DNA of 56,076 nucleotides from a virus (Duplodnaviria; Caudoviricetes): positions 1-56,076 of the IMG/VR virus record IMGVR_UViG_3300027996_002398. One strand, written 5' to 3'. The notes beneath the pieces are model-generated. The model was not told the DNA's origin. It ran no database searches and saw nothing but the letters and a program-made list of their open reading frames with translations. Below, in pieces: positions 3,010 to 51,427 of the stretch. The stretch's first letter is position 1, and every line of letters starts with the position of its first letter. Both the position numbers and the translations under genes were made by a program.

Positions 3010-3018
3010 ATATTTATA
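3010..3018 (+). promoter_or_regulatory. Putative late promoter ATATTTATA (portal)
   Basis: Same motif, upstream of the ATG at 3037. Confidence 0.6.
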
Positions 3019-3036: not shown

Positions 3037-4905
3037 ATGGCGGAAGAAAATAAAAATTTAACGGTATACCAAAAGTTATTTTACCTTTTTGGTCAAGGAG
3101 GTGGGCCTAAAGCTAATACCACATATAATAAGTATAGTTTAACGGATAAAGATTTAATTGTAACAAAATCTAAACAAGACTTCCAAAAAGAAAAATTACA
3201 ACTACAACAACAAAAATATTTAGAAGGTCAATGGACTAAAGTAGATAATGAACTTTACCAAAAGTCAGTATTCTATGAAACTTCTAGGATAGCTTCTTAT
3301 ATGGATTTTGAAGCCATGGAGTTTACACCAGAAATAGCTGTAGCTCTAGATATTATGTCAGAAGAATCTTGTACTTTAAATGAACAAGGTACAGTAATGT
3401 CTATTTATTCAGATTCTAATAGAATTAAAAAAGTTTTAGATGATTTATTTTTTAATGTACTAGACATCCATTCTAATTTACCAATGTGGACTAGGAACAC
3501 TTGTAAATATGGCGATAACTTTGTCTACCTAAAAATAGATTATAAAGATGGTATAATTGGGGCAAACCAACTAACTAATGTTGATATAGAAAGAAAAGAA
3601 GCTGACTCATTTCCTTTCCAAAAAAACGCTCAAGAAGTAGAGGGTGAAATGAAGAAAAAAAATGTCACTTTTGTATGGAAAAATAAAAGTTTAGACTTTA
3701 ACGCTTGGGAAGTAGCTCATTTTCGATTACTTGGTGACGATAGAAAGTTACCTTATGGTACTTCAGTTTTAGAAAAAGTTAGACGTATTTGGAAACAACT
3801 ACTTTTAGCTGAAGACGCAATGTTGGTGTATCGTGTAACTAGAGCTCCTGAAAGAAGAGTTTTTAAAATATATGTTGGTAACATTGATGACGCTGATGTT
3901 GAGTCTTATGTACAAAAAGTTGCTAATAAATTTAAAAGAACACAAGTAACTGATAGTCAAACAGGTCAGGCTGACGTTAGATACAATACTTTAGCTGTCG
4001 ACCAAGATTATTTTGTCCCTGTTAGAGACCCTAATGCCTCAATGCCAATAGAGACCCTACCTGGGGCTACAAATCTAGACCAAATAGCTGATATCCAATT
4101 TATCCAAAGAAAAATGGTTACGGCTCTTAGAGTACCGAAAACATTCTTAGGGTTTGAAGAACCAACAGGAGAAGGTAAAAATTTAGCTTTAATGGACATT
4201 AGATTTGCTAGAACTATTAATAGAATCCAACAGGCTATGATTCAAGAATTAAATAAAATAGCTATAATTCATTTATATATTTTAGGTTTTCATGATGAAA
4301 TAAATAACTTTAAGTTGTCACTTAATAACCCATCTACTCAAGGTGAAATGTTAAAAGTAGAACAATGGAAAGAAAAAGTATTACTTTATAAAGATTTGGT
4401 TGCTGGTGTTGACGGCGGTATAGCCCCAACTTCACATACTTGGGCTAAAAAGAACATTTTTAATTGGTCTTCGGATGAAATATTAGAAGATTTAGAACAA
4501 CAAAGACTAGAAAAGGCAGCATCTGCTGAATTAGAACAAACACCTAATATCATTAAAAACACAGGATTTTTTAAGAAAGTAGACAAACTTTACGGCGAAT
4601 TACCTATGGACCAAGGTGAAGGTGATGCTGGTGCTGAAGGTGACACTGGTGGGGGTGGTTTCGGTGATACTGGAGGTGATACTGGAGGTGGATTTGGTGA
4701 TGATACTGGAGGTGGATTTGGTGATGATACTGGTGGTGATACTGGAGGTGGCTTTGGTGAAAGTTTTAGAGGTGATGAAGATGTGATAGATAGACTTTTA
4801 TTAGAAGGCAAAAAGAAAAATGAAAACATTTTTATGATGACTAAGGGTATCGATGAACTTTTAAATAAAGAAAATGGGGAAGATAGTGACCTACTTACAA
4901 ATTAA
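3037..4905 (+). CDS. Portal protein (T4 gp20-like)
   Basis: EDAMLVYRVTRAPERRVFKIYVGN, DYFVPVR and IETLPG motifs; follows the terminase. Confidence 0.95.
   Translation: MAEENKNLTVYQKLFYLFGQGGGPKANTTYNKYSLTDKDLIVTKSKQDFQKEKLQLQQQKYLEGQWTKVDNELYQKSVFYETSRIASYMDFEAMEFTPEIAVALDIMSEESCTLNEQGTVMSIYSDSNRIKKVLDDLFFNVLDIHSNLPMWTRNTCKYGDNFVYLKIDYKDGIIGANQLTNVDIERKEADSFPFQKNAQEVEGEMKKKNVTFVWKNKSLDFNAWEVAHFRLLGDDRKLPYGTSVLEKVRRIWKQLLLAEDAMLVYRVTRAPERRVFKIYVGNIDDADVESYVQKVANKFKRTQVTDSQTGQADVRYNTLAVDQDYFVPVRDPNASMPIETLPGATNLDQIADIQFIQRKMVTALRVPKTFLGFEEPTGEGKNLALMDIRFARTINRIQQAMIQELNKIAIIHLYILGFHDEINNFKLSLNNPSTQGEMLKVEQWKEKVLLYKDLVAGVDGGIAPTSHTWAKKNIFNWSSDEILEDLEQQRLEKAASAELEQTPNIIKNTGFFKKVDKLYGELPMDQGEGDAGAEGDTGGGGFGDTGGDTGGGFGDDTGGGFGDDTGGDTGGGFGESFRGDEDVIDRLLLEGKKKNENIFMMTKGIDELLNKENGEDSDLLTN
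4639..4758 (+). repeat. Coding tandem repeat (GDDTGGGF-like units) in the portal C-terminus
   Basis: Repeated GGTGAT(GAT)ACTGGAGGTGGATTT units encoding GDTGGGGFGDTGGDTGGGFGDDTGGGFGDDTGGDTGGGFG. Confidence 0.85.
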
Positions 4906-4931
4906 GGCATATTTATTTTAAAAATAATATT

Positions 4932-6758: not shown

Positions 6759-7868
6759 ATGAAAAAAGTTTTTTTAGAATACGTTTGGTTGGACGGGAAT
6801 CAACCACAACAATTAAGAAGTAAAACTAAAGTTGTAAAACCTGAAGATATTAGAAAGTATAGTAATGAGGGTTTTAATTGGGACTTACCTAAATGGTCTT
6901 TTGACGGTAGTTCTACAAAACAAGCTAAAGCTGGAAAAGGAGAAAATACAGATTGTATTTTAACACCAGTGTTTTCTTGTAATGACCCATTTAGGGGAGA
7001 TTATCACTATATAGTTTTTTGTGAAGTTTTAAATCCAGACGGAAGTCTACACCCAACAAATAAAAGAGGTGAATTAAGGAATTTTATGAAAGAGAATAAG
7101 ATGGTTGATTCTAAAATTGATTTAGAAAACGCTAATTGGTTTGGTTGGGAGCAGGAGTATACCCTAACCACGAAACCAAATTTCAAGGAAGGTGAAGGGT
7201 TACCACTTGGTTTTAGGCCAAAAGAAGACCCTAGACCACAAGGAGATTATTATTGTGGTGTTGGAGCCGATAATATTACAGGTAGAAGAATCGTAGAAGA
7301 GCATTTAGAAAAATGTGTTGAAGCAGGTTTAGATATTTCAGGTATTAATGCAGAAGTTATGTTAGGTCAGTGGGAATATCAAATTGGTCCTGTAACATCT
7401 TTAGATGGTTCAGACCAATTATGGGTTTCTAGGTATATTCTACAACGAGTAGCAGAAGAAAATGGTGTAAAGATATCATTTCACCCAAAGCCAAAAACTG
7501 GTGATTGGAATGGTTCTGGATGTCATGTCAATTTTTCAACCCCCGAAATGAGGAAAGAGGGTGGACTTAGTTTAATTAAAGAGTCTGTAGAAAAATTATC
7601 TTTAACTCATGACAAACATATGGGGGTTTATGGTTTATTTAATGATAAACGAATGACAGGTGAACACGAAACTTCTAACATTAAAGATTTTAGTTATGGG
7701 TATAGTACAAGGGATACTAGTATTAGAATTCCGGCTCAATCTTCTATAGATGGTAAAGGTTATTTTGAAGACCGTAGACCAGCCTCTAATTGTGACCCAT
7801 ACAGTGTCGCGTTACGTATGTTACAAACTGTATATAACGAAGTTGAAGAACTTATGGATATTAATTAA
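6759..7868 (+). CDS. glnII: Glutamine synthetase type II
   Basis: EYVWLDG..LRSKT, WSFDGSST, GINAEVMLGQWEYQIGP, DWNGSGCH, GEHET, YFEDRRPASNCDPY; 369 aa fits GSII. Confidence 0.93.
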   Translation: MKKVFLEYVWLDGNQPQQLRSKTKVVKPEDIRKYSNEGFNWDLPKWSFDGSSTKQAKAGKGENTDCILTPVFSCNDPFRGDYHYIVFCEVLNPDGSLHPTNKRGELRNFMKENKMVDSKIDLENANWFGWEQEYTLTTKPNFKEGEGLPLGFRPKEDPRPQGDYYCGVGADNITGRRIVEEHLEKCVEAGLDISGINAEVMLGQWEYQIGPVTSLDGSDQLWVSRYILQRVAEENGVKISFHPKPKTGDWNGSGCHVNFSTPEMRKEGGLSLIKESVEKLSLTHDKHMGVYGLFNDKRMTGEHETSNIKDFSYGYSTRDTSIRIPAQSSIDGKGYFEDRRPASNCDPYSVALRMLQTVYNEVEELMDIN

Positions 7869-8432: not shown

Positions 8433-8487
8433 ATTAGTAAACTTAAAACATAAGGTTTTTTAGCATATTTATAGAAAAAGTATAGAT

Positions 8488-9219
8488 ATGAAAATATTAA
8501 AACCAGGTGAAGAGGGTCACGGATTCTTAGTAGAGTACGATTCTGGATTTGTATCATCTGAACTAACCTGTCAAGATGGGGTATGTTCAAACCATAATTT
8601 AATTAACGAATTTAAATCAGGATTAGTTTTAGGTCAAGACGGTTCTTTACCAGACAAAATAGAAATATACGCTGTACTCCAAAAATGGGGTGTAGAAAAT
8701 AAAAACGGGAGAGTCTATCCCGAAGAAATCCTTAAAAGAGAGGCAAAAAGATACCAAGAATTTATTGACATGGGAACTTCACTAGGTGAGTTAAATCACC
8801 CTGAGTCTTCTATTATTGATGCTGACCGTGTATCACATATGATTTCAGAAATTTGGTGGAATGGTAGAACACTTATGGGTAAAATGGAATTGGATACAAC
8901 TCCGGGTTATCTTAAGACAGGGATTATTTCATCTGTGGGTGACAAAGTTCTAAATATGATTAGAAAGGGTTGGACTGTAGGTATATCGTCAAGGGGTGTT
9001 GGCTCACTTAAAAATGAGGGTGGTAAGAATATAGTACAAGACGACTTTGAGTTAATTTGTTGGGATATTGTTACATCACCATCAACACCAGGTTCTTGGA
9101 TTTCTACAAGTGAAAAAGATTTAACCCCATACATGGAATCAACAAAAGATAATAAAACAAAATTAGTTATTGAGAATGGTTCTAATTTACTAGATAATTT
9201 AAATAAATTCTTATTGTAA
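8488..9219 (+). CDS. Prohead protease (T4 gp21-like)
   Basis: NKNGRVYP, GELNHP, VSH, GISSRGVGS and DIVTSPS motifs; ATATTTATA at 8465-8473. Confidence 0.93.
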   Translation: MKILKPGEEGHGFLVEYDSGFVSSELTCQDGVCSNHNLINEFKSGLVLGQDGSLPDKIEIYAVLQKWGVENKNGRVYPEEILKREAKRYQEFIDMGTSLGELNHPESSIIDADRVSHMISEIWWNGRTLMGKMELDTTPGYLKTGIISSVGDKVLNMIRKGWTVGISSRGVGSLKNEGGKNIVQDDFELICWDIVTSPSTPGSWISTSEKDLTPYMESTKDNKTKLVIENGSNLLDNLNKFLL

Positions 9220-9530
9220 TGAAAAAGAAAGTGATTAAATTAACAGAACAAGACTTAGAAAAGTTAGTTAAGAAAATTATCAAAGAAGATAGTGAAGAGT
9301 GGATGAAAAATACTTATAACCAAAATTTTCATACAGAAGAAGAAATGAATCGTGTATGGGAAGATTTAAATGAGTTGGATAATGATAAAATTTTTGATTT
9401 AATGGAATTAACTTTTAATGAATCTAAGATGAGTGTTGAGGATTTTGTTAATAACCTACCAACACGATTTGTTTACGATTACAACTACATTGTTTCTGTT
9501 TTAAAACAAATACAAGAAGAAGGTATATGA
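9219..9530 (+). CDS. Hypothetical protein with KLTExDL..LVKKIIKE leader
   Basis: Start overlaps the protease stop; carries the shared leader peptide. Confidence 0.75.
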   Translation: MKKKVIKLTEQDLEKLVKKIIKEDSEEWMKNTYNQNFHTEEEMNRVWEDLNELDNDKIFDLMELTFNESKMSVEDFVNNLPTRFVYDYNYIVSVLKQIQEEGI

Positions 9531-9573
9531 AATAATCGGTGGTCAAAAATTTAATGATTAAAACAAAAATATT

Positions 9574-10137
9574 ATGAAAAACATTATATCAGAAAGTGAA
9601 TTAAAAAGAATGGTTAAAAAAGTTGTTAGAGAAGAAAAACTAAATAACATTAACGAAGATAGAACTGACTTTGAAATGAGTGGTGCTAGAAGTCGTAAAG
9701 ATTATACATCAAACCCAAGAGAAAGAGATATCTCTTCTATGTTTGGTAAATACGCTGATGATGTTCCACCAATAGTAATTAGATACTTAAGAAAAAATCC
9801 TGAAGCTATCGTAAAAAGATTGTTTAAAATCTATGGTGAAAAAATATTTGATTATCTGCCACAACAAGAAATGGAAGAAGAGTATGATTCTTATATGGCT
9901 GATGTTCACGAAAAAAAAGATTGGATTAAAAACGCAATTGAGGAACCTGGTTCACTTAGAAAAAAAATGGGACTTAAAAAAGACGAAGAATTAACATCTT
10001 CTGATATTAGAAAAAAGATATCTCAATTAAAAAAGAAAGACAAAGACCCTAGTAAGAAAGGTGTTCAAGGTTTAGGTAAAAGAGACTTAAAAACTTATAG
10101 ACAATTAAATTTAGCTAAAACTTTACGTGGATTGTAA
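9574..10137 (+). CDS. Hypothetical protein with ISESELKRMVKKVVREE leader and a basic C-terminal domain
   Basis: Leader motif; C-terminal WIKNAIEEPGSLRKKMG...LNLAKTL. Confidence 0.75.
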   Translation: MKNIISESELKRMVKKVVREEKLNNINEDRTDFEMSGARSRKDYTSNPRERDISSMFGKYADDVPPIVIRYLRKNPEAIVKRLFKIYGEKIFDYLPQQEMEEEYDSYMADVHEKKDWIKNAIEEPGSLRKKMGLKKDEELTSSDIRKKISQLKKKDKDPSKKGVQGLGKRDLKTYRQLNLAKTLRGL

Positions 10138-10219
10138 GTATTTATATATAGGTTGTGCGGCTTGTAACAACTTAATTAAAAAGTAACAAGTAAATAAATA
10201 AAATATAAAAATTAAGAAA

Positions 10220-10540
10220 ATGAAAAAAAGAATTGTTAGATTAACTGAATCAGATTTAGAGAATTTGGTTAAACGTATTATTAAAGAAGAAGACGAAGGC
10301 CAAGGTGATGACCAAAGTGGTGGTGAAGAAACAATAGATATTAAGGATGTCCAAAATTTTATGGCTATGTTAGACCAATACTTTTTAAATAAAGCGGCGG
10401 GAAGAACAGCTTCAAAAAAAATCAATACAAGCCTTGAAAGAGCAGGTTTAATTGCTGCTATGATTGAGAAATTTGGTGTTGACTTGGCTTTGGTGAATAA
10501 AGCCAGAACAATGTTAAAACAAGGTGGGTACGGCAAATGA
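10220..10540 (+). CDS. Hypothetical protein with RLTESDL..LVKRIIKEE leader
   Basis: Leader nearly identical to that of ORF 9219; GTATTTATA at 10138-10146. Confidence 0.75.
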   Translation: MKKRIVRLTESDLENLVKRIIKEEDEGQGDDQSGGEETIDIKDVQNFMAMLDQYFLNKAAGRTASKKINTSLERAGLIAAMIEKFGVDLALVNKARTMLKQGGYGK

Positions 10541-11046
10541 ACATCCGTAAAATCATAAAGGAAGAACTTATTAAAGAGGTGGGTGGTTACGATGACCAAA
10601 GAGTTATGGCTAAACATGCTGGAACAACAATGGGTGCACTATCTACTAGTCATAATGATTTAACTAATTTATTATCAGGGTTAGCTAATTCTATTATGGA
10701 TGGAGCTAATAAAAACGATATTAGTGATTCTTTAATGGAAACCTCAAAAGAGATTAATTTTTTTATCGATATTATTAATGGTGTTATAAGTGAAGTTATG
10801 GAAGACGATGTTATTGTTAAAGCTAAAGAAACTATTTCTTCACTTAAAGTTTTTAAAAGAAAAATAGATATTCTTTCTAACTTTTCAGACGCTATGGGTA
10901 ATGATGAAGAATTTATTGAAAGAGTTAAACTTTTATTAATGGACTTAATACCTGCTTTAGAAGAGTATGGTAAACAACTTAGAATTACCAATAAAATGTT
11001 TGGTGACAGGTTTCAGTCGTTTGGTGCTGGATTTAGTCCTAATTAA
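10537..11046 (+). CDS. Hypothetical helical protein with IRKIIKEELIKE leader
   Basis: ATGA overlap with the previous gene. Confidence 0.75.
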   Translation: MNIRKIIKEELIKEVGGYDDQRVMAKHAGTTMGALSTSHNDLTNLLSGLANSIMDGANKNDISDSLMETSKEINFFIDIINGVISEVMEDDVIVKAKETISSLKVFKRKIDILSNFSDAMGNDEEFIERVKLLLMDLIPALEEYGKQLRITNKMFGDRFQSFGAGFSPN

Positions 11047-11121
11047 TACTTCACATATTAATTAATTATATCTACTATTATATCTCACAAATAATTATTA
11101 ATTAAAAAAAGTTTTAAAACC

Positions 11122-11355
11122 ATGGGAGACCAAATCACAAAATTTTTTCTTGTTAAAGTAGAGTTCGAAACAATTAACGAAGATACAGGAAAAGTAAAAA
11201 AAATCAAAACACAATACCTTGTCGATTCAATGACTTGTACTGAAGCTGAGGCTAGAACTCATAAATACCTTGATGGTACAGTACTAGATTATGAAATTGT
11301 ATCAGCAGTTAAATCACCAATCGAAGACGTTATTAAAGTTGCTGTTCCAGCATAA
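11122..11355 (+). CDS. DUF4494-like protein (Bacteroidota family)
   Basis: FLVKVEFETINE.TGKVKK...YLVDSMTCTEAEAR pattern. Confidence 0.7.
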   Translation: MGDQITKFFLVKVEFETINEDTGKVKKIKTQYLVDSMTCTEAEARTHKYLDGTVLDYEIVSAVKSPIEDVIKVAVPA

Positions 11356-11374
11356 TAATAATAAAATTCGTAAG

Positions 11375-11407
11375 AAAGACTCACAGAAATGTGGGTCTTT
11401 TTTTTTT
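11375..11407 (+). terminator. Intrinsic terminator between convergent genes
   Basis: AAAGACTCACA-GAAA-TGTGGGTCTTT followed by a T run. Confidence 0.85.
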
Positions 11408-11834
11408 AATCCCTATATTCTTCAGGTAATTCCATACCATCAGCTATTTCTTTAAATAACCCACCATGTTCTTTATGGGTTGGTAAATCTTCCCCGACAC
11501 AAGCGTGTATTAATTCATGTGTAATAACCCATTTAAGATATTCTTTATCTTCTAAAGCTTTTGGTTTTATACCCATTAAACCATTTTTATCATCTTTGGG
11601 GTGATTAAATCCAGCAATTTTACCATCTTTTATCTCACTATCTAACTTAATATCTATTTTAGGTAGGTCTAATTCTTTGTTTGTAATTTTTTTATACACT
11701 TTTTTTAATTTGTTTTCTATAGAGTTTTTTAATGACTTAACTATCACTAAATCCTCGTTTTCTTTCATTAAACTAGGTTTTTTAGTCTCATTAATGATAA
11801 TCTTTTCTATTATAGTTTTAACAATATCTTTCAT
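11406..11834 (-). CDS. SprT-like zinc metalloprotease
   Basis: VITHELIH...HGGLFK. Start moved to ATG 11834, 5 nt after ATATTTATT (11848-11840). Confidence 0.7.
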   Translation of the reverse strand: MKDIVKTIIEKIIINETKKPSLMKENEDLVIVKSLKNSIENKLKKVYKKITNKELDLPKIDIKLDSEIKDGKIAGFNHPKDDKNGLMGIKPKALEDKEYLKWVITHELIHACVGEDLPTHKEHGGLFKEIADGMELPEEYRD

Positions 11835-11978
11835 ATAAAAATAAATATCCCGTTTTTTTAAACAGTAACACCAAAAAATAAATCTTTTCCACATTTATTG
11901 AATATTTATTTTAAAAACAACGCAATTTTATGCGCTGTTCTTTAATAATAATAATTTTTTAAAATAAAAAAAGAAAAA

Positions 11979-13193
11979 ATGGCTGAAACAAGAAAGTCTA
12001 TCATCGATGAAGCTTTTATGGAAGCGGAAAGTATAGAACAAGCTTTCAAAGCTAACTCAAAAGAAATACTGGCTCACACAATGGGTTCAGAAATTGAAGA
12101 AATGGTAAAGGAATCTTTAGAAGGTTCGGTAGCTTTAAACGAAGACGAAGATGATGAGAATGTTGATTTAGAGTTAGACTTAGGTTTAGACTCTGACGAG
12201 CCCGGCGAGGATGCTGGTGATGACCTTGACCTAGAATTAGGTGATGAGGATGATGAAGATATGGAAGACATGGAAGACATGGAAGATATGGATTCTGATG
12301 AACTTGAAATTGTAGACCTTACAGATGAAGACGATGACACTGTAGTTAACGTATTCAAAAAAATGGCTGACGAAGATGAAATCGAAGTTGTCCAAACTGG
12401 TGATGGGGTTGAAATCAAGGATAACGAAACTGGTGCCGAGTACAAAATAGAATTTGGTGGTGATTCTGAAATAGAAATGGACGATGAGGATATGGAAGAT
12501 ATGGAAGATATGGAAGACATGGAAGACATGGAAGACATGGAAGATATGGAAGATATGGATTCTAATGAAATAGAAATGGACGATGAAGACGGTGAGGAAA
12601 TAGAATATCAAATTGAATTGGGTGATGATGAAGAACCTGAAGAAATGGAAGACGATATGTCTGAAGATTCTAGACACACACCATCTAATAGAAGAAAACG
12701 CAATTTAAAACCTGCTAATCTTAAAAATGAGTCTAAAAAACCAAAATTCTTAAAGTTAGTAAACGAAAATAAAGTTCTAAAAAGTAAAGTAAGTTCAATT
12801 GCGTCTGAAAATGAAACTTTAAAAGAAGACTACAACAAAATGGTAGGTGCTCTTAAAGAGTTTAGACAAAAACTGAATGAGGTAGCTATTTTTAATAGTA
12901 ACCTAACATATACAGTTAGATTGTTTACTGAACACACAACAACTAAAGGTGAAAAAGTTGACATCATTAAAAGATTTGACGATTCAAAGTCACTTAAAGA
13001 ATCTAAAGCTACATATAAAATTTTAGTTAAAGAAATCTCTAAGACAAAGACACCGATTAAAGAATCAATTGATGAAAGACTTAATATAACTAAAAGTAGT
13101 GGTTCAGCATCTGAAATAACTGAATCAAAAGTTTACGTAGACCCACAAATTGAAAAAATGAAACAATTATGGGAATATGAGTATAAAAATTAA
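11979..13193 (+). CDS. Prohead core/scaffolding protein
   Basis: Very acidic middle, coiled-coil C-terminus, directly upstream of the MCP; ATATTTATT at 11902-11910. Confidence 0.8.
   Translation: MAETRKSIIDEAFMEAESIEQAFKANSKEILAHTMGSEIEEMVKESLEGSVALNEDEDDENVDLELDLGLDSDEPGEDAGDDLDLELGDEDDEDMEDMEDMEDMDSDELEIVDLTDEDDDTVVNVFKKMADEDEIEVVQTGDGVEIKDNETGAEYKIEFGGDSEIEMDDEDMEDMEDMEDMEDMEDMEDMEDMDSNEIEMDDEDGEEIEYQIELGDDEEPEEMEDDMSEDSRHTPSNRRKRNLKPANLKNESKKPKFLKLVNENKVLKSKVSSIASENETLKEDYNKMVGALKEFRQKLNEVAIFNSNLTYTVRLFTEHTTTKGEKVDIIKRFDDSKSLKESKATYKILVKEISKTKTPIKESIDERLNITKSSGSASEITESKVYVDPQIEKMKQLWEYEYKN
12261..12287 (+). repeat. ATGGAAGAY x3 (Met-Glu-Asp)
   Basis: Read directly; followed by ATGGATTCT, as is the longer array. 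Confidence 0.85.
12492..12554 (+). repeat. ATGGAAGAY x7 (Met-Glu-Asp)
   Basis: Seven 9-bp units, flanked on both sides by GAAATAGAAATGGACGATGA. Confidence 0.9.
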
Positions 13194-13231
13194 AAATAAT
13201 AATAAAAATTAAAATTAAAAACCAAAAAAAA

Positions 13232-15007
13232 ATGGGATATTTATTAAAATCTGGAGAAGTTGGTAACATCGGACTTAAGCACCAAAAAGCTGTTCGTGAA
13301 GCAACTGTCTCTAAATGGAACGACCTAGGATTCTTAGAAGGATTAGAAGGTCACGTAAGAGAGAACATCGCTTTGTTGTATGAAAACCAAGCATCAGTTC
13401 TTATCAATGAAACTACAGACGCTGGTTCGTCTGGTTCTTTTGAAACTGTAGTTTTTCCTATCGTTAGAAGAGTTTTCTCTAAATTATTAGCTAACGATAT
13501 AGTATCAGTACAAGCTATGAACTTACCGATAGGTAAATTGTTCTACTTTGTACCTAAAGCGTCTGAAAGAATAGGTGACGGTAGTTCAGCTTTATCAACA
13601 CATGGTGAGCCTGTTGTAACAAATTGTGTTGACGCAGGTTGTGTAACAACAACTTACTCTGATTGTGCTAAGAATCTTTATGACAGATTCTACAATGATG
13701 AGTTTTTTGACCAATCAAAAGGTGCTTTTACAGCACAAACATCTTCACCAACTCCTGTAATCTGGACATCTTGTACTACAGGTGATGAATTTACTGATGG
13801 TGTTTCTCCATTCGCGGGTGACGGTTCTGTTAGAACTCAAATCGTTAAATTATGTGGATTCAATTCATCTGGAGCTGGTAGATTAACAGGTCCTAACGGA
13901 AACGAAATGGATACTGAAGAATTTTTAGCTTCTTTAGACCTTACAGTTGATGGGGCAATAGTAGATAAAGACAATAAAACAATTTTAGCGTCAGGTGATA
14001 AAGTTCCTTTCAGAGTTGTTACTCAGAGATATGGAAAAGGTATTGTAAACTACGGTGACATTTGTTCACCTGAAGGTTGTATTTATCTTGAAGCTGATTT
14101 AACTCACCCTGTGTGTGTTGAGTGTGGTGATGGTACTTTCGATGGTTACATTGGAGCATCATCAGGAACAACTGCTATCGTTCCTGGAGTTGGTGTAGCT
14201 GACTTAGGTGGTGTTGATATTGTAGCTGTTTGGAGACAATATAGTTCATTAGAACTTGAATCTCAAATGGGTGAAGTTTCTTTCGAATTAGATTCTGTAA
14301 CGGTATCTGTAACTGAAAGAAAATTAAGAGCTACTTGGACTCCTGAATTAGCACAAGATGTATCGGCTTTCCATAACATCGATGCTGAAGCTGAATTAAC
14401 AGCATTATTATCTGAGCAAGTTGCTGCTGAAATTGATAGAGAAATCTTAAGAGACCTTAGAAAAGGTGCAGCATGGCAATTACGTTGGGATTATAACGGT
14501 TATAAAAGATTACCACAATCTAACGCTTACACTCAAAAAGAGTGGAACCAAACGTTAGTAACGGCAATCAACCAAATCTCAGCTCAAATTCACAAGTCTA
14601 CATTAAGAGGTGGAGCTAACTTTATCGTGGTATCTTCTGAAGTATCAGCTATTTTTGATGATTTAGAGTACTTCCACGTATCAAACGCTTCTCCTGAGCA
14701 AGACAACTATAACATGGGTATTGAGAGAGTAGGTTCTTTATCAGGTAGATATACTGTATACAGAGACCCTTACGCTCCAGCTAACTCAGTATTAGTAGGT
14801 CATAAAGGTAAATCATTGTTAGATACTGGGTACATTTACGCACCTTACGTACCATTACAATTGACACCTACAATGTATAACCCGTTCAACTTCGTACCTG
14901 TTAAAGGTATTATGACACGTTACGCTAAGAAATTTGTTAATAACAGATTCTACGGACAAGTTAATGTTGATGGATTACGTACATTTGACGTGAGAGAATT
15001 AAGATAA
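13232..15007 (+). CDS. Major capsid protein (T4 gp23-like)
   Basis: WTPELAQD...DAEAELTALLSEQVAAEIDREI, YAPYVPL and GIMTRY motifs; likely maturation site LINE/TT. Confidence 0.96.
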   Translation: MGYLLKSGEVGNIGLKHQKAVREATVSKWNDLGFLEGLEGHVRENIALLYENQASVLINETTDAGSSGSFETVVFPIVRRVFSKLLANDIVSVQAMNLPIGKLFYFVPKASERIGDGSSALSTHGEPVVTNCVDAGCVTTTYSDCAKNLYDRFYNDEFFDQSKGAFTAQTSSPTPVIWTSCTTGDEFTDGVSPFAGDGSVRTQIVKLCGFNSSGAGRLTGPNGNEMDTEEFLASLDLTVDGAIVDKDNKTILASGDKVPFRVVTQRYGKGIVNYGDICSPEGCIYLEADLTHPVCVECGDGTFDGYIGASSGTTAIVPGVGVADLGGVDIVAVWRQYSSLELESQMGEVSFELDSVTVSVTERKLRATWTPELAQDVSAFHNIDAEAELTALLSEQVAAEIDREILRDLRKGAAWQLRWDYNGYKRLPQSNAYTQKEWNQTLVTAINQISAQIHKSTLRGGANFIVVSSEVSAIFDDLEYFHVSNASPEQDNYNMGIERVGSLSGRYTVYRDPYAPANSVLVGHKGKSLLDTGYIYAPYVPLQLTPTMYNPFNFVPVKGIMTRYAKKFVNNRFYGQVNVDGLRTFDVRELR

Positions 15008-15030
15008 GATAAATCTTAAACAATAATGGG

Positions 15031-15057
15031 AGGGGAACTAAATGTTCCCCTTTTTTT
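15031..15057 (+). terminator. Intrinsic terminator after the MCP
   Basis: AGGGGAAC-TAAAT-GTTCCCCT followed by a T run. Confidence 0.88.
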
Positions 15058-15081
15058 ATGCTTTGTGTGATATTTATTAAT

Positions 15082-15369
15082 ATGAATCTGAAAAGAATTA
15101 TAAAGGAAGAATTAAATAAATCTGAAGACGAATGGGAATGGGCTAAAACAACCCAACCAATAGAACTTGAAAACCCTAAAGATTGGGTTGGTCGGACTTT
15201 TAAAAAAGCTAATAATTCAACCCAACAATCTTTTACTGTGGTTGGTTTAGATGATAATGGTAATATTTCTTTGGTTCATAACCATATGGGTGGTGAGTAT
15301 TACGGTGTATCTACAAATCCTCAGGCTATAATAAAGTTTATTAGTGATGGTACATGGGAATGGATTTAA
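15082..15369 (+). CDS. Hypothetical protein with LKRIIKEE leader
   Basis: ATG 15082 lies 3 nt after ATATTTATT (15070-15078). Confidence 0.75.
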   Translation: MNLKRIIKEELNKSEDEWEWAKTTQPIELENPKDWVGRTFKKANNSTQQSFTVVGLDDNGNISLVHNHMGGEYYGVSTNPQAIIKFISDGTWEWI

Positions 15370-16043
15370 AAAAAATAATAATAGAAGAGATTGATGACTT
15401 TGTTTGGGCTAAGGGTAAAATAGAATATCCAATAGATTTCCTTATCGGTAAAAAAATATATTGGAGGCGAAACAATTTGGGTGACCTTGAAGATGCTGGG
15501 TATACTATGCAAGAATTAAATAAAGAAGATTTAAAATTGGGTACTATTAGACGAAGAAATGGTTGGGTACTAGTCAAACCGATTGGTGAAAATGTTAGAA
15601 TAAAAATGGAAAACAACCTCCTTGACGACACATACCCAATATCTGACGTTGAGGATTATGTTAGATTAGGTATTTGGGTTGTTGAAGATGATAACGGTAG
15701 ACTTTTAAACGAATCTGATGATTTACAATGGATAAAAGATATTGAACCTGAAATAACACAAAAATCAATCCCAACGTATTATAATAAACCTTTTTATTGG
15801 TATGACAATGGCAAACCCGTGATTGAATGGGGGATGCCTAGAATTTATTGGTTAGAAGGTTGGAAGCCGTATTCTAGGGTGGGTGAAGAACAAATGTCTC
15901 TATTTTGTTACAAGGATTTATCTGTATCTAGTGAGATATACAACAGTGAATGTACCGAATTTTTGAATAAAACAATAGTTAACTATATTAAAAGGGGTAT
16001 AATAGTATTCCAACCACAGTTAAGTGATATTAAAAATGATTAA
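15360..16043 (+). CDS. Hypothetical two-module protein with LKKIIIEE leader
   Basis: Both modules start with E.DD[FL].W[AI]K; the start could also be 15354. Confidence 0.75.
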   Translation: MDLKKIIIEEIDDFVWAKGKIEYPIDFLIGKKIYWRRNNLGDLEDAGYTMQELNKEDLKLGTIRRRNGWVLVKPIGENVRIKMENNLLDDTYPISDVEDYVRLGIWVVEDDNGRLLNESDDLQWIKDIEPEITQKSIPTYYNKPFYWYDNGKPVIEWGMPRIYWLEGWKPYSRVGEEQMSLFCYKDLSVSSEIYNSECTEFLNKTIVNYIKRGIIVFQPQLSDIKND

Positions 16044-16390
16044 ACTCCGTTTTCAATGTCTTCTCTTAATATGTTATAGTATTCTTCCCTAAAAATTTCT
16101 CTTACCCTTTCTTCCGTTGTTAAAGATTCGTCTCCATGAAAAACACCACCTTCATTAGCTTCAAAAATAATATCACCTTCGGGTGAATTAACAGTTATGC
16201 CAGCATTAAAATCACCTACCGTAGTAATTGTGGATGTCCATTGAGTATTTTCATCGGTATAAACATAATCAAAAGGAATGTTAATCTGACCTGTTTCTTC
16301 ATCAACATAACCATATTCTCTTTGTGATACATACCAAAAAGGAGAACCGTCTAAAAAATGATGTTTTGGAATTGTTTTAAACTTAAACAT
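16040..16390 (-). CDS. Hypothetical protein
   Basis: ATG 16390; upstream variant motif GTGTTTATA. Confidence 0.65.
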   Translation of the reverse strand: MFKFKTIPKHHFLDGSPFWYVSQREYGYVDEETGQINIPFDYVYTDENTQWTSTITTVGDFNAGITVNSPEGDIIFEANEGGVFHGDESLTTEERVREIFREEYYNILREDIENGV

Positions 16391-16412
16391 ATGAAAATAT
16401 ATAAACACAAAT

Positions 16413-16446
16413 AAAAAAAGGAAGTCTTTTGACTTCCTTTCTTTTT
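16413..16446 (-). terminator. Intrinsic terminator (possibly bidirectional)
   Basis: AAAGGAAGTC-TTTT-GACTTCCTTT with A and T runs on both sides. Confidence 0.85.
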
Positions 16447-16463
16447 GATAAAAACAACTAAGG

Positions 16464-17204
16464 TTAATCTCTTACACCTTTTTTAGTTGCTTCCTCTTTG
16501 TTTGTAGGACCATTTTCTAGTCTTTCGTTAATGATTTCCATTATGCCTCCCCCCAACATACTGTAAACTTTCATGGCGTTCCCTACATTCATTTCTTTGT
16601 CTTTAATGTCCCACAAAGTGATACCATCTTTTTTCTTTTTATCGTTATGGAAAGCCACTTTAGCTAATTCATTAGTACGATATTCAGATTCTTTTGCTTT
16701 CTTGTCGATTACAAAAACTAGTGAACCTTTTTCGGTGTACTGTTTATAGTACTTACCGTAATTATTGTCTTCACTAGAGACACACCATTTTGTCCCTTTA
16801 CCGTAAAGGTTAGAACTACGAACACTTAGAGGGTATACAACCAACCAACGGTCATCTTCGTAAAGTACTTCGGTTTCTTTTTTCTTAACCTCAGAGCGTG
16901 TAATTTTTTCTTTTGCTGTTTTAACAGATTCAATGATATCTTGATTAGACTCGTATGAGTAGATATCTTTGTTTTCTAATAGATTTCTTTTAGATAGGTC
17001 TTCAAAGTCGTGAATAACTTCAAACATTTCTTTAAATGTTTCATTTTTTAATTCATTATTAATCCATTGAACCCAATCAGCGGTACACTTAATCATAAAA
17101 GGTAGGTACTTATTTGTTTTAGTTGGGTCCATCTTTGACAATACAGTGATAACATCTATTGAGTAGGTTGGGTTTTGTGCTTTCAGTTCTTTAATTTTTG
17201 CCAT
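16464..17204 (-). CDS. Phage protein with YGxGTKWC motif (PcfJ-like, function unknown)
   Basis: WLVVYPLS..SSNLYGKGTKWCVS...YYKQY; has its own host-type promoter and terminator. Confidence 0.65.
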   Translation of the reverse strand: MAKIKELKAQNPTYSIDVITVLSKMDPTKTNKYLPFMIKCTADWVQWINNELKNETFKEMFEVIHDFEDLSKRNLLENKDIYSYESNQDIIESVKTAKEKITRSEVKKKETEVLYEDDRWLVVYPLSVRSSNLYGKGTKWCVSSEDNNYGKYYKQYTEKGSLVFVIDKKAKESEYRTNELAKVAFHNDKKKKDGITLWDIKDKEMNVGNAMKVYSMLGGGIMEIINERLENGPTNKEEATKKGVRD

Positions 17205-17247
17205 ATCTATTTAAAAGTTTTTTTTTATTATTTAATCATTAACAATA

Positions 17248-17278
17248 CAAATATAATGATTTTTTTTAAACTAACAAA
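17248..17278 (-). promoter_or_regulatory. Bacteroidota primary-sigma promoter (-33 TTTG / -7 TATATTTG)
   Basis: Minus strand: TTTG (17278-17275), 19-nt spacer, TATATTTG (17255-17248). Confidence 0.8.
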
Positions 17279-17364
17279 CTATTTTTAATATTTTTTATTT
17301 TAACTATTCTTCTAATATAATACGATTTTTTAGTTTAATAAGATATTTATATAAAAACTATAAT

Positions 17365-17796
17365 ATGAGAATACGTGATAGAAAAAATAATATGCTTAAA
17401 GCGAATAAACAAGTTTTAGGTATTTTAAAAGAAGAAGATAGTGGTAGTGAGTCTAAAAAAGAAAAAAAGACAACATTAACTAGACATCCAGCATATTCCG
17501 CAATAGATATGTTAGAAACAGAATTAGAAAAATTAAAAATGAATTTTAAAGAAAGTATTGCTAATGCGGTATCTGGTTCTGATGGTTATCATAGTGAAAT
17601 TGATAAGTTTTCTGAAGATTTCGGTAAGTTTATTACTAAGGTGTCTAATCTTAAAAGTAAAATAAACGACTATCAAATAGCTAATAAAGATAAGGAGATT
17701 GCTGAAGCTAAAAAAAGAGAAGAACAAAAACGACAATATCAAAACCATATGAAGGAAGTTGCTAGAAACGAAGGTTCAAATTATTCTTATCAATAA
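17365..17796 (+). CDS. Hypothetical coiled-coil protein
   Basis: ATATTTATA at 17343-17351; ILKEE near the N-terminus. Confidence 0.75.
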   Translation: MRIRDRKNNMLKANKQVLGILKEEDSGSESKKEKKTTLTRHPAYSAIDMLETELEKLKMNFKESIANAVSGSDGYHSEIDKFSEDFGKFITKVSNLKSKINDYQIANKDKEIAEAKKREEQKRQYQNHMKEVARNEGSNYSYQ

Positions 17797-17805
17797 AGTT
17801 AAATT

Positions 17806-18357
17806 ATGAAAAATTTAAAAGAAATAAAATTAATGATGGAGAGATTAGAATCTCCAAGGTTAACCCAAACTGAGTTAAATCATAAAAAAAACCTTTTAAA
17901 AGAAGATATTTTAGAATTAAAACAAATGTCTAAACAAATCTATTCTTTTCTTAAAAAGAAGGGTTATGAAGTTAAAATGAAAACCGAACAAGGTGATAAA
18001 GGTAGGGAATCTTTTAATACTAACTTGGATTTAAATGATACCGTTCAATTAGTGATACAAGAAGGTTCTGAACTTGTAATGATAGCTTTACCGGTTCGTG
18101 CTGTTGTTAAGAAATTAACTGGTGAAAAAGACCTTAACTCTAGTAAAGTAACGGAAAAATATGGTAATGGGTTAAATGACTGGTATACTAATAAAGAAGT
18201 GACTAATTACGTTGATAAATTAGGTACTGAAATTGTTTCTCAACTAACATCTAAATACCCAAACATGAAACACTCTTTTGATAAAGATAATCAAGCAATG
18301 TTTTACTTTATGAAGTTTGGTTATGGTCGAAACAAAAAAGGTGGGGATATAAAATGA
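17806..18357 (+). CDS. Hypothetical protein
   Basis: 183 aa; N-terminal segment ends in LLKE. Confidence 0.75.
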   Translation: MKNLKEIKLMMERLESPRLTQTELNHKKNLLKEDILELKQMSKQIYSFLKKKGYEVKMKTEQGDKGRESFNTNLDLNDTVQLVIQEGSELVMIALPVRAVVKKLTGEKDLNSSKVTEKYGNGLNDWYTNKEVTNYVDKLGTEIVSQLTSKYPNMKHSFDKDNQAMFYFMKFGYGRNKKGGDIK

Positions 18358-18632
18358 AAAATATAATACGTAAGGTATTAAAAGAAGAATCAGACAAACA
18401 AACTGATTTAGCTAACTCTAATACTGAAGAACGTAATATATGTGATGATTTTAGTGCTGAAAGTTATGAGGATTTGGTTGATTTGATTAATAAATCACAC
18501 GTATCCAAAGAAGATGACCCTATAATAGAAAAATTATTAGATGAATTAAAATCTGATATGAAAAAGTTGGATACGGAAAAAGACTTAATAAACACATACC
18601 AACATAAAATAGCTACACAACTTTGTAAATGA
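18354..18632 (+). CDS. Hypothetical protein with MKNIIRKVLKEE leader
   Basis: ATGA overlap; shared leader. Confidence 0.72.
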   Translation: MKNIIRKVLKEESDKQTDLANSNTEERNICDDFSAESYEDLVDLINKSHVSKEDDPIIEKLLDELKSDMKKLDTEKDLINTYQHKIATQLCK

Positions 18633-20171: not shown

Positions 20172-20211
20172 TAGTTTCTTTTACTAATAAATATCTAAAA
20201 AAACCATATTG

Positions 20212-24089: not shown

Positions 24090-24123
24090 AACTTTTTTAT
24101 TATAAATATCTTTTTATTTAATT

Positions 24124-29085: not shown

Positions 29086-30123
29086 CTAAACTCTAGGTTT
29101 AAGAATAGTGTTCATAACCTCGTTTGGGATTCCCATAGTAATTTCAGATTCTTTGTAGTAATCCAACCAATAAGAAACCATCTCATCTAACATCGTTTCA
29201 AACGTATATTTAGGTTCCCAACCCAACTTACTTCTTAATTTGGTTGAGTCCCCCTTTAAATCCGTTAATTCTTCTGGTCTCATATGTTTACCTGAAATAA
29301 CAACATAGTTCTGATAGTTTAAATCTAACTTATTAAAAACATAATCACAAAGTTCTTTAACTGAGTGGGAAACACCAGTAGAACACACATAATCATCTGG
29401 GGTGTCAGTTTGTAACATTAACCACATAGCTTCAACATAATCTTTAGCGTGTCCCCAATCTCTAGTTGCGTCTAAGTTACCTAAGTGTAATTTTTCTTGT
29501 ATCCCCAATTTAATCCTAACTGCTGCCTTAACCACTTTATTGGTAACAAAATTTGTCCCTCTTCTTGGTGATTCATGGTTAAAAAGAATTCCATTCCATA
29601 TTTTCATCCCATAAGAGTTTCTATAATTTCTTGTTATGTTATACGAAAATACTTTAGCACAACCATAAGGAGATACAGGGTTCATTGGTGTTGTTTCTCT
29701 TTGATATCCATCCTCATCAATATTATTTCCAAACATTTCAGAAGAAGATGCTTGATATATTTTTGAGTTGGGTGACACCATTCTAACAGCCTCTAATAAG
29801 TTAAGTGTCCCTAAACCTGTTGCGTTTGCGGTATAAATTGGTTGGTCAAAACTAACTCTTACATGTGATTGTGCAGCTAAATTATATATTTCATCAGGTT
29901 GTATTTTTTGGAGTACTCTAACTAGAGATGCCATATCCGTAAGGTCAGCGTATTCTAAATTAATTTTATTAGAGGAACGTAAGTGTTCTATTCTGTTTGA
30001 TTGTGTTTCTGAAACTGAATTACGTTTTACTGTACCATAAACTTCATACCCTTTTTTTAGTAATAATTCAGCGAGATATGAACCATCTTGTCCATTTATT
30101 CCTGTTATTAAAGCTTTTTTCAT
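29086..30123 (-). CDS. gmd: GDP-mannose 4,6-dehydratase
   Basis: ALITGINGQDGSYLAE, YNLAAQSHV, QASSSEMFG, SPYGCAK, FNHESPRRG, RDWGHA. Confidence 0.95.
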   Translation of the reverse strand: MKKALITGINGQDGSYLAELLLKKGYEVYGTVKRNSVSETQSNRIEHLRSSNKINLEYADLTDMASLVRVLQKIQPDEIYNLAAQSHVRVSFDQPIYTANATGLGTLNLLEAVRMVSPNSKIYQASSSEMFGNNIDEDGYQRETTPMNPVSPYGCAKVFSYNITRNYRNSYGMKIWNGILFNHESPRRGTNFVTNKVVKAAVRIKLGIQEKLHLGNLDATRDWGHAKDYVEAMWLMLQTDTPDDYVCSTGVSHSVKELCDYVFNKLDLNYQNYVVISGKHMRPEELTDLKGDSTKLRSKLGWEPKYTFETMLDEMVSYWLDYYKESEITMGIPNEVMNTILKPRV

Positions 30124-30129
30124 ATTATA

Positions 30130-30966
30130 TTATTTACGTTTAGAGATTGCACATTTTTCTGATAAAAAAGAAACAACATCCCCCCCCACATTATTATCAT
30201 AAAGTTTTTTATTTTCATTGTTTATAGCTAAAATTAAACCGTCAACAGAAAATGACTCTCTTGGTGTGTGTTGTGTTATTATATTAAAACCATTACTACT
30301 TAACATATCACAACATTGTTTATGACCTTTTTCACTGTGGGTAGATATCATAAAATAACCAATTGAATTAAATATATGTTTGCTACTAGATAATAAAATA
30401 TTTTCTGCTCCTTGTATATCAGAATGTACTATATCAAAGTAATCTTTACCACTAAGTTCAAATAGTTTTTCTAGGGTATACATGGGCATTTTTATTTTTT
30501 TACCATCCCAATCATTAAAAACAGATTCTTTTTTATAAGTGTTACCAATAAAACCCTGTTTAAACTCAATATTTTCACAACTATTTAATTCACTATTTAA
30601 TTTACCACCATTTAAATTACTCATAACTGGTTCCATACATAAATTATAAGACCTCTCTATTTCAGTATTAAACCATATAGAATAGTAAGACCAATGAGAA
30701 CCCAATTCTATCATATTAGCCTCTTTATTTAAAGTTTTTAATAAATAATGGAAACAAAGTTCTTCCTGTGGTTCGTGATGACCATTAAGCTTAGTTATTA
30801 TATCATTCATCCAAGGAGAATGATATGTCCCCCAAGCAATTTTTACACCATTAAACATGTACTGATATTTGTTATTATTTTCAGTTTCTATAATACCAGC
30901 CTTTGGGTGTTTTTCTATTACATCACAATCTCTACAACTAGTTGTTACACTTACTCTATTATTCAT
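30130..30966 (-). CDS. FkbM-like methyltransferase
   Basis: HEPQE, MIELGSHWSYYS, HSDIQGAE. Confidence 0.75.
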   Translation of the reverse strand: MNNRVSVTTSCRDCDVIEKHPKAGIIETENNNKYQYMFNGVKIAWGTYHSPWMNDIITKLNGHHEPQEELCFHYLLKTLNKEANMIELGSHWSYYSIWFNTEIERSYNLCMEPVMSNLNGGKLNSELNSCENIEFKQGFIGNTYKKESVFNDWDGKKIKMPMYTLEKLFELSGKDYFDIVHSDIQGAENILLSSSKHIFNSIGYFMISTHSEKGHKQCCDMLSSNGFNIITQHTPRESFSVDGLILAINNENKKLYDNNVGGDVVSFLSEKCAISKRK

Positions 30967-30968
30967 CT

Positions 30969-34378: not shown

Positions 34379-34379
34379 T

Positions 34380-34967: not shown

Positions 34968-34978
34968 AATATTTTTTT

Positions 34979-36685: not shown

Positions 36686-36687
36686 AA

Positions 36688-37551: not shown

Positions 37552-37554
37552 TTA

Positions 37555-38145: not shown

Positions 38146-38151
38146 AATAAA

Positions 38152-46362: not shown

Positions 46363-46431
46363 AATTACTTTTTTAAATAAATATCTAGTAATTATGTTAG
46401 TTTAATTTTATTTTTTTTAAAATCTGAAGTT

Positions 46432-51362: not shown

Positions 51363-51427
51363 TTTTTATCTTTTTTAAATAAATATCACTACTTTACATT
51401 CAGTTCAATTAATTTATCTAAATATTG

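Follow-up and report, generated by a model that had tools for sequence, protein, structure and literature searches.

Why do proteins that otherwise have no detectable similarity, encoded around the prohead protease, scaffold and major capsid protein (MCP) genes of an uncultured tailed phage, begin with the same kind of short peptide? In this study, we addressed this question for IMG/VR record IMGVR_UViG_3300027996_002398 (Duplodnaviria; Caudoviricetes), whose 56,076 nucleotides (nt) we call the window; this 56-kb window is the entire record of the phage and has a G+C content of ~30%. We read the shared peptides, here called leaders, as T4-style capsid-targeting propeptides with prohead-protease cut sites, and give this reading a probability of roughly 0.6. 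The leaders are N-terminal, selected as peptides, portable between cargoes and tied to late or structural gene units, and they end in the motif found at the capsid and scaffold sites; beyond this, we infer core binding, cleavage, packaging and injection.

Leader proteins of the window

A sequence-only reading of the same DNA had described a single leader type. We find at least three: class A (MKKRIVKLTESDLEKLVKKIIKEE, also written MKKRIVKLTESDLEKLVKKIIKE), class B (MKNLIRKILKEE or MNIRKIIKEE, also MKNLIRKILKE) and class C (MRRQDKRMVIKEANQRLE). Ten genes of the window carry a leader (lengths and positions in amino acids [aa] and nt).

9219..9530, + strand: 103-aa protein; class A leader at aa 1-23 (nt 9219-9287), MKKKVIKLTEQDLEKLVKKIIKE, then an acidic 80-aa part; no family in Pfam or PHROGs
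9574..10137, + strand: 187-aa protein; class A-like leader at aa 1-20 (nt 9574-9633), MKNIISESELKRMVKKVVRE
10220..10540, + strand: 106-aa protein; class A leader at aa 1-23 (nt 10220-10288), MKKRIVRLTESDLENLVKRIIKE
10537..11046, + strand: 169-aa conserved head-module protein; class B leader at aa 1-14 (nt 10537-10578), MNIRKIIKEELIKE, then a GGYDD hinge and a four-helix bundle
11406..11834, - strand: 142-aa SprT-like (HExxH) metallopeptidase-like protein; class B-like leader at aa 1-16 (nt 11787-11834), MKDIVKTIIEKIIINE
15082..15369, + strand: 95-aa protein; class B leader MNLKRIIKE (nt 15082-15108), EDEWEW (nt 15124-15141) and one small module
15360..16043, + strand: 227-aa protein of two modules; class B leader MDLKKIIIE (nt 15360-15386), DDFVW (nt 15393-15407), a beta-rich module, the internal junction LLNESDDLQWIKDIEPE (aa 115-131, nt 15702-15752) and a second module
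17365..17796, + strand: 143-aa protein; atypical leader ending in ILKE, aa 1-23 (nt 17365-17433)
17806..18357, + strand: 183-aa protein; long N-terminal extension ending in LLKE, aa 1-33 (nt 17806-17904)
18354..18632, + strand: 92-aa acidic protein; class B leader MKNIIRKVLKE, aa 1-11 (nt 18354-18386)

All eight leaders quoted in the sequence-only reading (at 9219, 9574, 10220, 10537, 15082, 15360, 18354 and, on the minus strand, 11834) are indeed present at these gene starts. Among the weaker versions that it listed, those at 17365 (ILKEE, residues 20-24) and 17806 (LLKED, residues 30-34) turn out to be true members, judged by the leaders of their orthologues, and those at 44887 and 51362 fail a stricter pattern; the proposed C-terminal copy in the open reading frame (ORF) at 368 does contain IIKE (residue 155 of 164), as a single unsupported match. 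The leaders are 9-33 residues long, end in [ILV][ILV][KRN]E and are basic, with an isoelectric point (pI) of about 10 in seven of the ten, while the predicted mature parts are acidic in six of the ten (pI 4.1-5.0).

Across the 67 called proteins of the window (17,313 residues), the pattern [ILV][ILV][KRI]E[ED] occurs nine times in the first 35 residues and four times elsewhere. The nine N-terminal occurrences fall on 9 of the 15 proteins in 9219-18632 and on none of the 52 outside (Fisher p 1.2e-7), which bears out the proposed clustering around protease, scaffold and MCP. In 200 composition-preserving shuffles, the pattern fell on 0.32 proteins on average and never on more than 3, ruling out a composition artefact as its source. 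The bare [IL]xE motif is hardly enriched alone (38/67 proteins; shuffles gave 24.9 on average and 37 at most); the signal resides in the longer amphipathic leader. The claim that the leader ORFs are otherwise unrelated holds at the BLAST level: all-against-all BLASTP gave a single match, 9219 with 10220 over residues 1-26 only, and beyond the leader the cargoes have no detectable mutual similarity.

Portability and selection of the leaders

Because the pattern was fixed after inspection of the window, relatives served as independent data. IMG/VR holds 510 relatives of the MCP, from which we retained 80 loci at 63-91% identity; together with the window, these loci gave 1654 ORFs in 202 families, for which the first 30 residues were left out of the clustering to keep the leader from driving it. 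At least 36 of the 202 families carry a leader. Matches of the class A and class B hidden Markov models (HMMs) lie at residues 1-25; the class C seed pattern matched nothing, so that no class C HMM was made and this class was counted by a looser pattern. The leader motif is conserved over loci with MCP identity from 63% to 91%, and class B-like leaders (M[KR]xhI[KR]xhL[KR]E) are kept where that identity is down to 63-70%.

Leaders and cargoes are exchanged between each other. The 10537 family has class B leaders in 11 distinct orthologues (…ELLKE↓VGGYDD; arrows mark the proposed cut) and a class A leader in one, L009 (…RKIINE↓VGGYDD), the swap being joined precisely after Glu (E↓VGGYDD). Orthologues of the 17365 protein with the same cargo (KKTTLT[KR]HPAY...) have class A leaders; the window copy differs from them in the first half of the leader and is identical in ILKEE. 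Two orthologues in the 17806 family have class C leaders (MRRFDK...EANQ[KR]LE...) with the same L[LI]KED ending. Class A leaders occur in relatives of the 9574 protein (cluster 32, 10 members), orthologues of the SprT-like protein begin M..I[KR]KILRE, and one orthologue of the 18354 protein (L004) begins MRSLIRKILKEE; the homologue of the 9219 protein in L010 was called without a leader. The number of leader genes after the protease varies from 1 to 4 between relatives.

The fullest view comes from a complete relative, G002 (380,343 bp; CheckV 100% complete; protease 92% identical to that of the window), where 47 of 458 ORFs, about one gene in ten, are tagged; these proteins reach 1577 aa and are spread across the 380-kb genome. 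Identical residues in its leader copies share a codon in 160/291 and 158/261 comparisons, and codon usage predicts 0.37-0.69 per residue. Synonymous codons thus vary freely between copies, which indicates selection on the peptide and supports, at the level of sequence comparison, the view of the leader as a portable module selected at the amino acid level. In G002, the loose class B pattern alone matches 19 of 1432 internal-Met controls, a rate that implies about six false calls among the tagged ORFs; the leader plus the DFDW motif described below occurs in 11 ORFs and in 0/1432 controls. Further afield, the uncultured 484-kb huge phage LR756508 (MCP 46% identical) has a related leader, MK[LI]xExKLRxhh[KR]EE, which opens 16 of the 55 ORFs in the neighbourhood of its protease and MCP genes and 0/110 internal-Met controls.

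A candidate cut motif common to leaders, capsid and scaffold

The link to the prohead protease rests on three genes of the head module.

8488..9219, + strand: prohead protease of the T4 gp21 type (Peptidase_S77; PF03420, 2e-27; phrog_207, 1.7e-41)
11979..13193, + strand: acidic protein, putative scaffold
13232..15007, + strand: MCP of the Gp23 family (PF07068, 5.8e-72)

The protease shares 44% identity with a protein annotated as prohead protease in Flavobacterium phage immuto and has a possible LVIE site near its C-terminus (9163-9174). The product of 11979..13193, without a Pfam family, is a probable scaffold by its position between protease and MCP, its Asp/Glu-rich repeats and its conserved N-terminus.

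The predicted MCP maturation site, LINE↓T (aa 57-60, nt 13400-13411), lies in an N-terminal region of the form …ENQAS-x-L-[LI]-[NTS]-E-[STA], from which a linker that varies in length leads to the conserved SGSFETVVFPIVRR. All of the 36 distinct relatives have L-[LI]-x-E (36/36), with L at P4 in every one, L or I at P3 in 23 and 13, N at P2 in 27, E at P1, and S, T or A at P1' in 19, 12 and 5. The equivalent region of T4 gp23 reads …FLTE↓AEIGG; the 65-residue propeptide of gp23 is described as removed by gp21 (PMC9026906). The scaffold begins MAxx[KR]KSII[DE]E↓A (IIDE at 12000-12011), similar to a class B leader; across 40 relatives, K6 and A12 are invariant and S7, I8, I9 and E11 are kept at 90% or more. 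Since leaders, MCP and scaffold all contain hydrophobic-x-Glu, they have one common candidate cut motif, by sequence alone. Because the scaffold is very acidic and the leaders are basic, our guess is an electrostatic contact between them. A co-fold of the scaffold (404 aa, 40 rows) with the 10537 leader protein (12 rows) scored 0.00 against a mark of 0.32, was run without controls and counts neither way.

DFDW junctions and polyprotein-like proteins

Many class B leaders continue past the proposed cut into a conserved [DE]-[FW]-[DE]-W-[VIA]-x-[DE], here DFDW, found in the window at 15082 (EDEWEW) and 15360 (DDFVW). Its role may lie in recognition on the P' side of the cut, or in signalling retention or ejection. 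Twenty-nine such N-termini were combined into a profile, which, searched against 1.84 billion cluster representatives, matched 946 database clusters at E 0.001 or better, 26 of them at 1e-10 or better; all members examined in the clusters of the ten top matches were metagenomic and either called "hypothetical protein" or without a name.

Junctions were counted in the best 150 of the 946 matches. The motif lies in the first 30 residues in 144 of these, a basic h-x-E helix lies in the first 26 residues in 124 of the 150, and the motif occurs two to sixteen times in 123, at a median spacing of 109 residues (interquartile range 86-122), so that such polyprotein-like proteins consist of junction-separated modules of ~110 residues. 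At internal junctions, [ILMVF]xE is found within 8 residues upstream in 282/309 cases against 104/725 random positions, and the residues flanking the Glu show preferences that the anchor does not impose: N at P2 in 139/282 and S at P1' in 229/282. These preferences give the junction consensus [LI]-N-E-S-x-DFDW, whose first four residues are identical to the predicted MCP site. At the 35 internal junctions of G002, P3 is L, I, V or M in 35/35, but is imposed by the anchor; the L or I at P3 of the MCP site (36/36) is not.

In relatives, modules are shuffled between junctions: L007 and L012 gain a module, and L010 has a longer, unrelated C-terminal region in place of one. Pfam gave no family in nine of ten polyprotein-like matches and NUDIX in the remaining one; an HExxH motif is visible in one match, P0009. 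A full-text literature search, in which the motif letters were not searched and supplementary proteome tables lay outside the search, returned no description of these leaders or of the DFDW junction in uncultured T4-like or huge phages. We regard the DFDW junction in polyprotein-like proteins as a new finding.

A promoter-like motif at leader units

Copies of the motif ATATTTAT precede, by 11-26 nt, the genes for terminase, portal and protease, those at 11834(-), 15082, 17365 and 18642(-), and some others, at the following positions.

8465..8472, + strand: upstream of the protease and the leader-gene run
15070-15077 and 17343-17350, + strand, and 11841-11848, - strand: at leader units
356-363, 853-860, 3010-3017, 4909-4916 and 53745-53752, + strand: further copies of [GA]ATATTTAT
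20187-20194, 24102-24109, 46377-46384 and 51379-51386, - strand: further copies of [GA]ATATTTAT

The claim that leader genes lie in units carrying TATTTAT is partly confirmed: every one falls in a same-strand run headed by the motif. The association proposed as a check is also seen in G002, where the motif stands within 60 nt upstream of 21/49 leader genes and 63/409 others (odds ratio 4.1, p 2e-5); by transcription unit, the counts are 32/49 and 173/409. Because of the structural genes that it heads, we take ATATTTAT for a probable late promoter. It is the reverse complement of ATAAATAT. The T4 late promoter is TATAAATA, which, read backwards, our motif presumably resembles.

Nature of the cargo

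Pfam and PHROGs gave nothing for eight of the ten window leader proteins, the exceptions being the SprT-like protein, whose Pfam match (PF10263, 1.1e-5) is barely at the cutoff, and weak sub-threshold matches. The sequence-only reading had seen no leader on the glycan or replication enzymes. The glycan block of the window is indeed without leaders; in relatives, enzymes do carry them, namely CCA-adding/PolyA_pol enzymes, a NUDIX hydrolase, an AAA_33 kinase (class C leader), a PAP2 phosphatase and a lysozyme, the last a 404-aa protein with a phage lysozyme domain at its end. The remaining tagged cargo in relatives is mostly without a known family. A tagged PolyA_pol/CCA-adding gene lies directly upstream of the protease in L017, L022 and L024. 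In L018 (1966-4585, - strand), such a leader-tagged gene is apparently split into ORFs of 139 and 426 aa, between which lie an 81-aa ORF and a 224-aa ORF starting MEKGYIYKLID...; by eye, the latter looks like a GIY-YIG homing endonuclease.

For two window proteins, AlphaFold2 models agree with a position of the leader outside the folded domains. The ORF 15360 model has a predicted local distance difference test score (pLDDT) below 50 over residues 1-21 and of 70-90 over the beta-rich module (22-119); the junction and second module are poorly modelled, from an alignment of only five sequences. The ORF 10537 model shows a separate leader helix (3-14), a stretch of pLDDT below 50 (8-18) and a four-helix bundle (21-163, pLDDT 86-95). 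Fold searches returned only weak small-beta-barrel matches and no assignment for the ORF 15360 module (residues about 20-117; best match a Tudor-type domain, Z 5.5, root mean square deviation 2.7 over 63 residues), and only generic helical bundles, none at E 0.001 or better, for the 10537 model. The 10537 family is present in 15 loci, and some cargo, such as this conserved bundle, may be structural core proteins. Regarding the modular tag for swappable effectors that had been proposed, the tag is portable, selected as a peptide, swapped between families and encoded beside an S77 protease; the label "effector" is only a guess, because six of the ten mature window proteins are acidic, unlike the basic internal proteins of T4.

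Proposed mechanism and alternative explanations

We propose that a short basic amphipathic helix of class A, B or C would carry its protein into the scaffold core of the assembling prohead, where the gp21-type (S77) prohead protease would cut behind the Glu with which the hydrophobic-x-Glu motif ends. Further substrates of this protease would be the MCP, at L-[LI]-N-E↓S, the scaffold, close to its N-terminus, and the polyprotein-like relatives, at the [LI]-N-E↓S junctions between their ~110-residue modules; the freed modules would remain in the head with the DNA, and some would probably be ejected into the host.

Several observations weigh against this reading. The leader patterns were set post hoc, from the same data, with ORF starts taken as the first ATG. 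Leaders and T4 capsid-targeting sequences (CTSs) have no sequence in common beyond hydrophobic-x-Glu, the former being basic and the latter not, and acidic mature parts (6/10 window proteins) depart from the basic internal proteins of T4. A load of about one-tenth of the G002 genes, NUDIX, AAA_33, PAP2 and CCA-adding enzymes included, is heavy for one capsid. Since the strongly conserved DFDW[VI]x[DE] comes after the proposed cut, the conserved module extends beyond what a removable propeptide would comprise, and DFDW may itself be the true signal. Three G002 proteins (L086:9811-13575, L099:4188-5231 and L085:13239-13472) have a DFDW-type start without the basic helix, two of them encoded shortly downstream of a leader-bearing gene; read-through, piggy-back loading and DFDW acting as an independent signal are possibilities here. 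The LR756508-type leader pattern is found on none of 45 ORFs in a 41-kb flanking region of immuto. Finally, cleavage, packaging and ejection are proposed from sequence comparison, for a system without a cultured close relative (best cultured MCP matches 42-43%).

What, then, could the leaders be instead? Shared N-termini might go back to a recent gene duplication or to an element that acts at the nucleotide level, in recombination or translation initiation for example; 9219 and 10220 are similar over 26 residues, and A-rich codons after ATG are frequent in AT-rich genomes. Yet synonymous codons diverge between copies as codon usage predicts, the grounds on which we reject this explanation, and the cargoes lack detectable similarity, the motif also occurs internally, far from start codons, nine proteins carry it against 0.32 in shuffles, and it is kept across the whole 63% to 91% range of MCP identity, which together leave such an origin highly improbable. 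A different view, which we consider unlikely, takes the leader and the DFDW junction as an uncut sorting or interaction tag that acts outside the capsid, on another phage structure, a host factor or a chaperone, with the polyproteins as multivalent scaffolds. The position of the best-conserved part, DFDW[VI]x[DE][VI]xP, after the proposed cut speaks for it, as do the helix-less DFDW proteins and the ordinary cytoplasmic enzyme families scattered, tagged, across a 380-kb genome; such a tag would, however, not be expected to show a junction [LI]-N-E-S equal to the predicted MCP site L-[LI]-N-E-[ST], a peak of leader-gene density among the protease, scaffold and MCP genes, a promoter-like motif in common with the structural genes, or agreement with the T4 precedent in length and position.

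The leaders might also direct head entry and cleavage as we propose, with a cargo consisting mainly of structural parts of the prohead core or an inner body, not of swappable injected effectors. In favour of this, the interval from protease to scaffold, in which one would look for core genes, contains four leader genes; the 10537 family, a simple bundle of helices, is kept in 15 loci; and small acidic proteins that belong to no enzyme family make up most of the window cargo. But gene content turns over fast among relatives (1 to 4 leader genes after the protease), and tagged lysozyme, SprT-like peptidase, NUDIX, kinase and CCA-adding enzymes resemble post-entry functions; a mainly structural cargo thus appears quite unlikely to us.

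Going beyond capsid targeting with protease cut sites, we tentatively speculate, at clearly less than even odds, that a widespread clade of uncultured T4-like jumbo phages devotes about one-tenth of its genes to a capsid-loaded arsenal addressed by a two-part code. The helix would address the acidic core, [LI]-N-E↓S-x-DFDW junctions would let the protease split beads-on-a-string polyproteins into their ~110-residue modules, and the retained DFDW would be a second signal, for retention or ejection; the cargo would include enzymes delivered with the DNA (CCA-adding/tRNA-repair, NUDIX, kinase, lysozyme and SprT-like peptidase) that could repair or disarm host defences before phage gene expression. 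If the capsid-targeting reading is right, T4 capsid targeting is not a T-even peculiarity but would be an old and general loading route in T4-like and huge phages, used for a large, fast-changing protein set in a system far bigger than that of T4, with three leader classes, fixed-junction polyproteins and 946 clusters. It would provide a sequence rule to predict virion-internal or ejected proteins in uncultured jumbo phages, new candidate counter-defence proteins and new portable tags for packaging foreign proteins in phage heads. The exact match between junction and predicted MCP site amounts to a directly testable specificity for an uncharacterised S77 protease.

Comparison with known systems

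The nearest parallel is the T4 CTS, described as an N-terminal propeptide of 10-19 residues that confers core affinity and that gp21 cleaves off (PMC9026906); in the internal proteins of T-even phages, described as a diverse set, the CTS is the one conserved part (PMC3012670). In the T4 record, ipII and ipIII begin MKTYQEFIAE↓A and gp22 begins MLKEQLIAE↓A. The proposed parallel with the T4 internal proteins stands as regards the CTS-like position and the hydrophobic-x-Glu ending, and fails as regards the charge of the mature proteins. In both systems, a short peptide, of 10-19 residues in T4 and 9-33 in the window, stands at the N-terminus of unrelated, fast-changing proteins (IPI, IPII, IPIII and Alt in T4), ends in hydrophobic-x-Glu, is accompanied by a gp21-family (S77) protease, a Gp23 MCP and a T4-type portal, and resembles the N-terminus of the phage's own scaffold (MKTYQEFIAE and gp22 MLKEQLIAE in T4; M.IRKIIKEE and MAE.RKSIIDE here). 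Compared with the ipII and ipIII N-termini (MKTYQEFIAE), the leaders show no sequence similarity except the h-x-E ending. In contrast to T4, the leaders are strongly basic and of three classes, the tag is on ~10% of the genes in a complete relative instead of on a handful, DFDW follows the cut site and the junction recurs inside polyprotein-like proteins, and many cargoes are acidic; the function is proven experimentally in T4, whereas the present system is known from its sequence alone.

Polyvalent proteins, as presented by Iyer et al. (2017; PMC5512222), are long multi-module polypeptides of portal-terminase phages for which that paper proposes head packaging, processing by peptidases and delivery together with the DNA; the definition given there is 2-15 distinct domains per polypeptide, in a phage or conjugative element, with hallmark conflict domains such as zincin metallopeptidases, ArdC-N, ART and methylases inside the polypeptide. 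Relatives likewise encode long multi-module polypeptides, with 2-16 DFDW-delimited modules per protein that may or may not be distinct domains. The head module of the window contains a leader-bearing gene of the zincin type, the SprT-like one, as a separate gene. However, the modules here are ~110 residues long and mostly without a known family, the fixed [LI]NES-DFDW junction matches a prohead-protease and not a zincin site, and the hallmark domains ArdC-N, ART and MuF were not found by Pfam in the ten polyprotein-like matches (NUDIX only); the window itself has a single two-module protein.

In the phiKZ-like giant phages phiKZ, 201phi2-1 and SPN3US, cleavage behind Glu by a gp21-related protease is described for many head proteins, a role of the propeptides in bringing proteins into the prohead is inferred, and paralogues have conserved N-termini in common (PMC5694885). 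The sites in that account are A/S-x-E (AXE, SXE, SLE, ALE), the propeptides mostly exceed 100 residues, and, as far as the account goes, there is no confirmed gp22-type scaffold (PMC5694885). Giant genomes, a gp21-family protease, a proposed cut after Glu and common N-termini are found here as well; the sites are [LIV]-x-E, the leaders short and the head genes T4-type. The phiKZ-like hallmark of a small P3 residue and a long propeptide is absent, with L or I at P3 of the MCP in 36/36 and leaders of 9-33 residues.

We claim a likeness only, and no membership, for the cargo-loading peptides of encapsulins. There, too, a short portable peptide steers unrelated proteins into a shell of the HK97 fold; the peptide usually sits at the C-terminus, is not cleaved off and serves a nonviral compartment.

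Genomic context and further observations

Two more head genes lie upstream of the protease.

865-2724: large terminase, from a Pfam scan
3037-4905: T4-type portal (Portal_T4; PF07230, 2.5e-73)

The window thus encodes a gp21-family (Peptidase_S77) protease together with a T4-type MCP and portal. These T4-type head genes and the complete 380,343-bp relative mark it, by homology, as a piece of the genome of a distant T4-like jumbo phage; by MCP, the closest cultured phages are Microcystis phage Mel-JY01 and Flavobacterium phage immuto, at only 42-43% identity. Signal peptides in the style of the Bacteroidota, seen in two relatives, hint at a possible host in that phylum.

Within the head module, a glutamine-synthetase-like gene (6759-7868, + strand; Gln-synt_C 1.9e-18, Gln-synt_N 1.1e-8) stands between portal and protease and keeps this position in relatives. 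A gene for a conserved 77-aa DUF4494 protein without a leader (11122-11355, + strand; 1.3e-12) is present in every close relative, placed between leader genes and scaffold. A long run of sugar-nucleotide and glycosyl/methyl-transferase-like genes, none with a leader, occupies 29086-40457 (- strand) and includes paralogues (29086 and 31599, 40% identity; 30969 with 34979 and 34380). Finally, a 649-aa protein (49413-51362, - strand) combines a weak DHH-like N-terminal region with sigma-70 regions 2 and 4 at its C-terminus; it begins MNIILNEGLLNEGG, and its gene is preceded by the ATATTTAT copy at 51379-51386.

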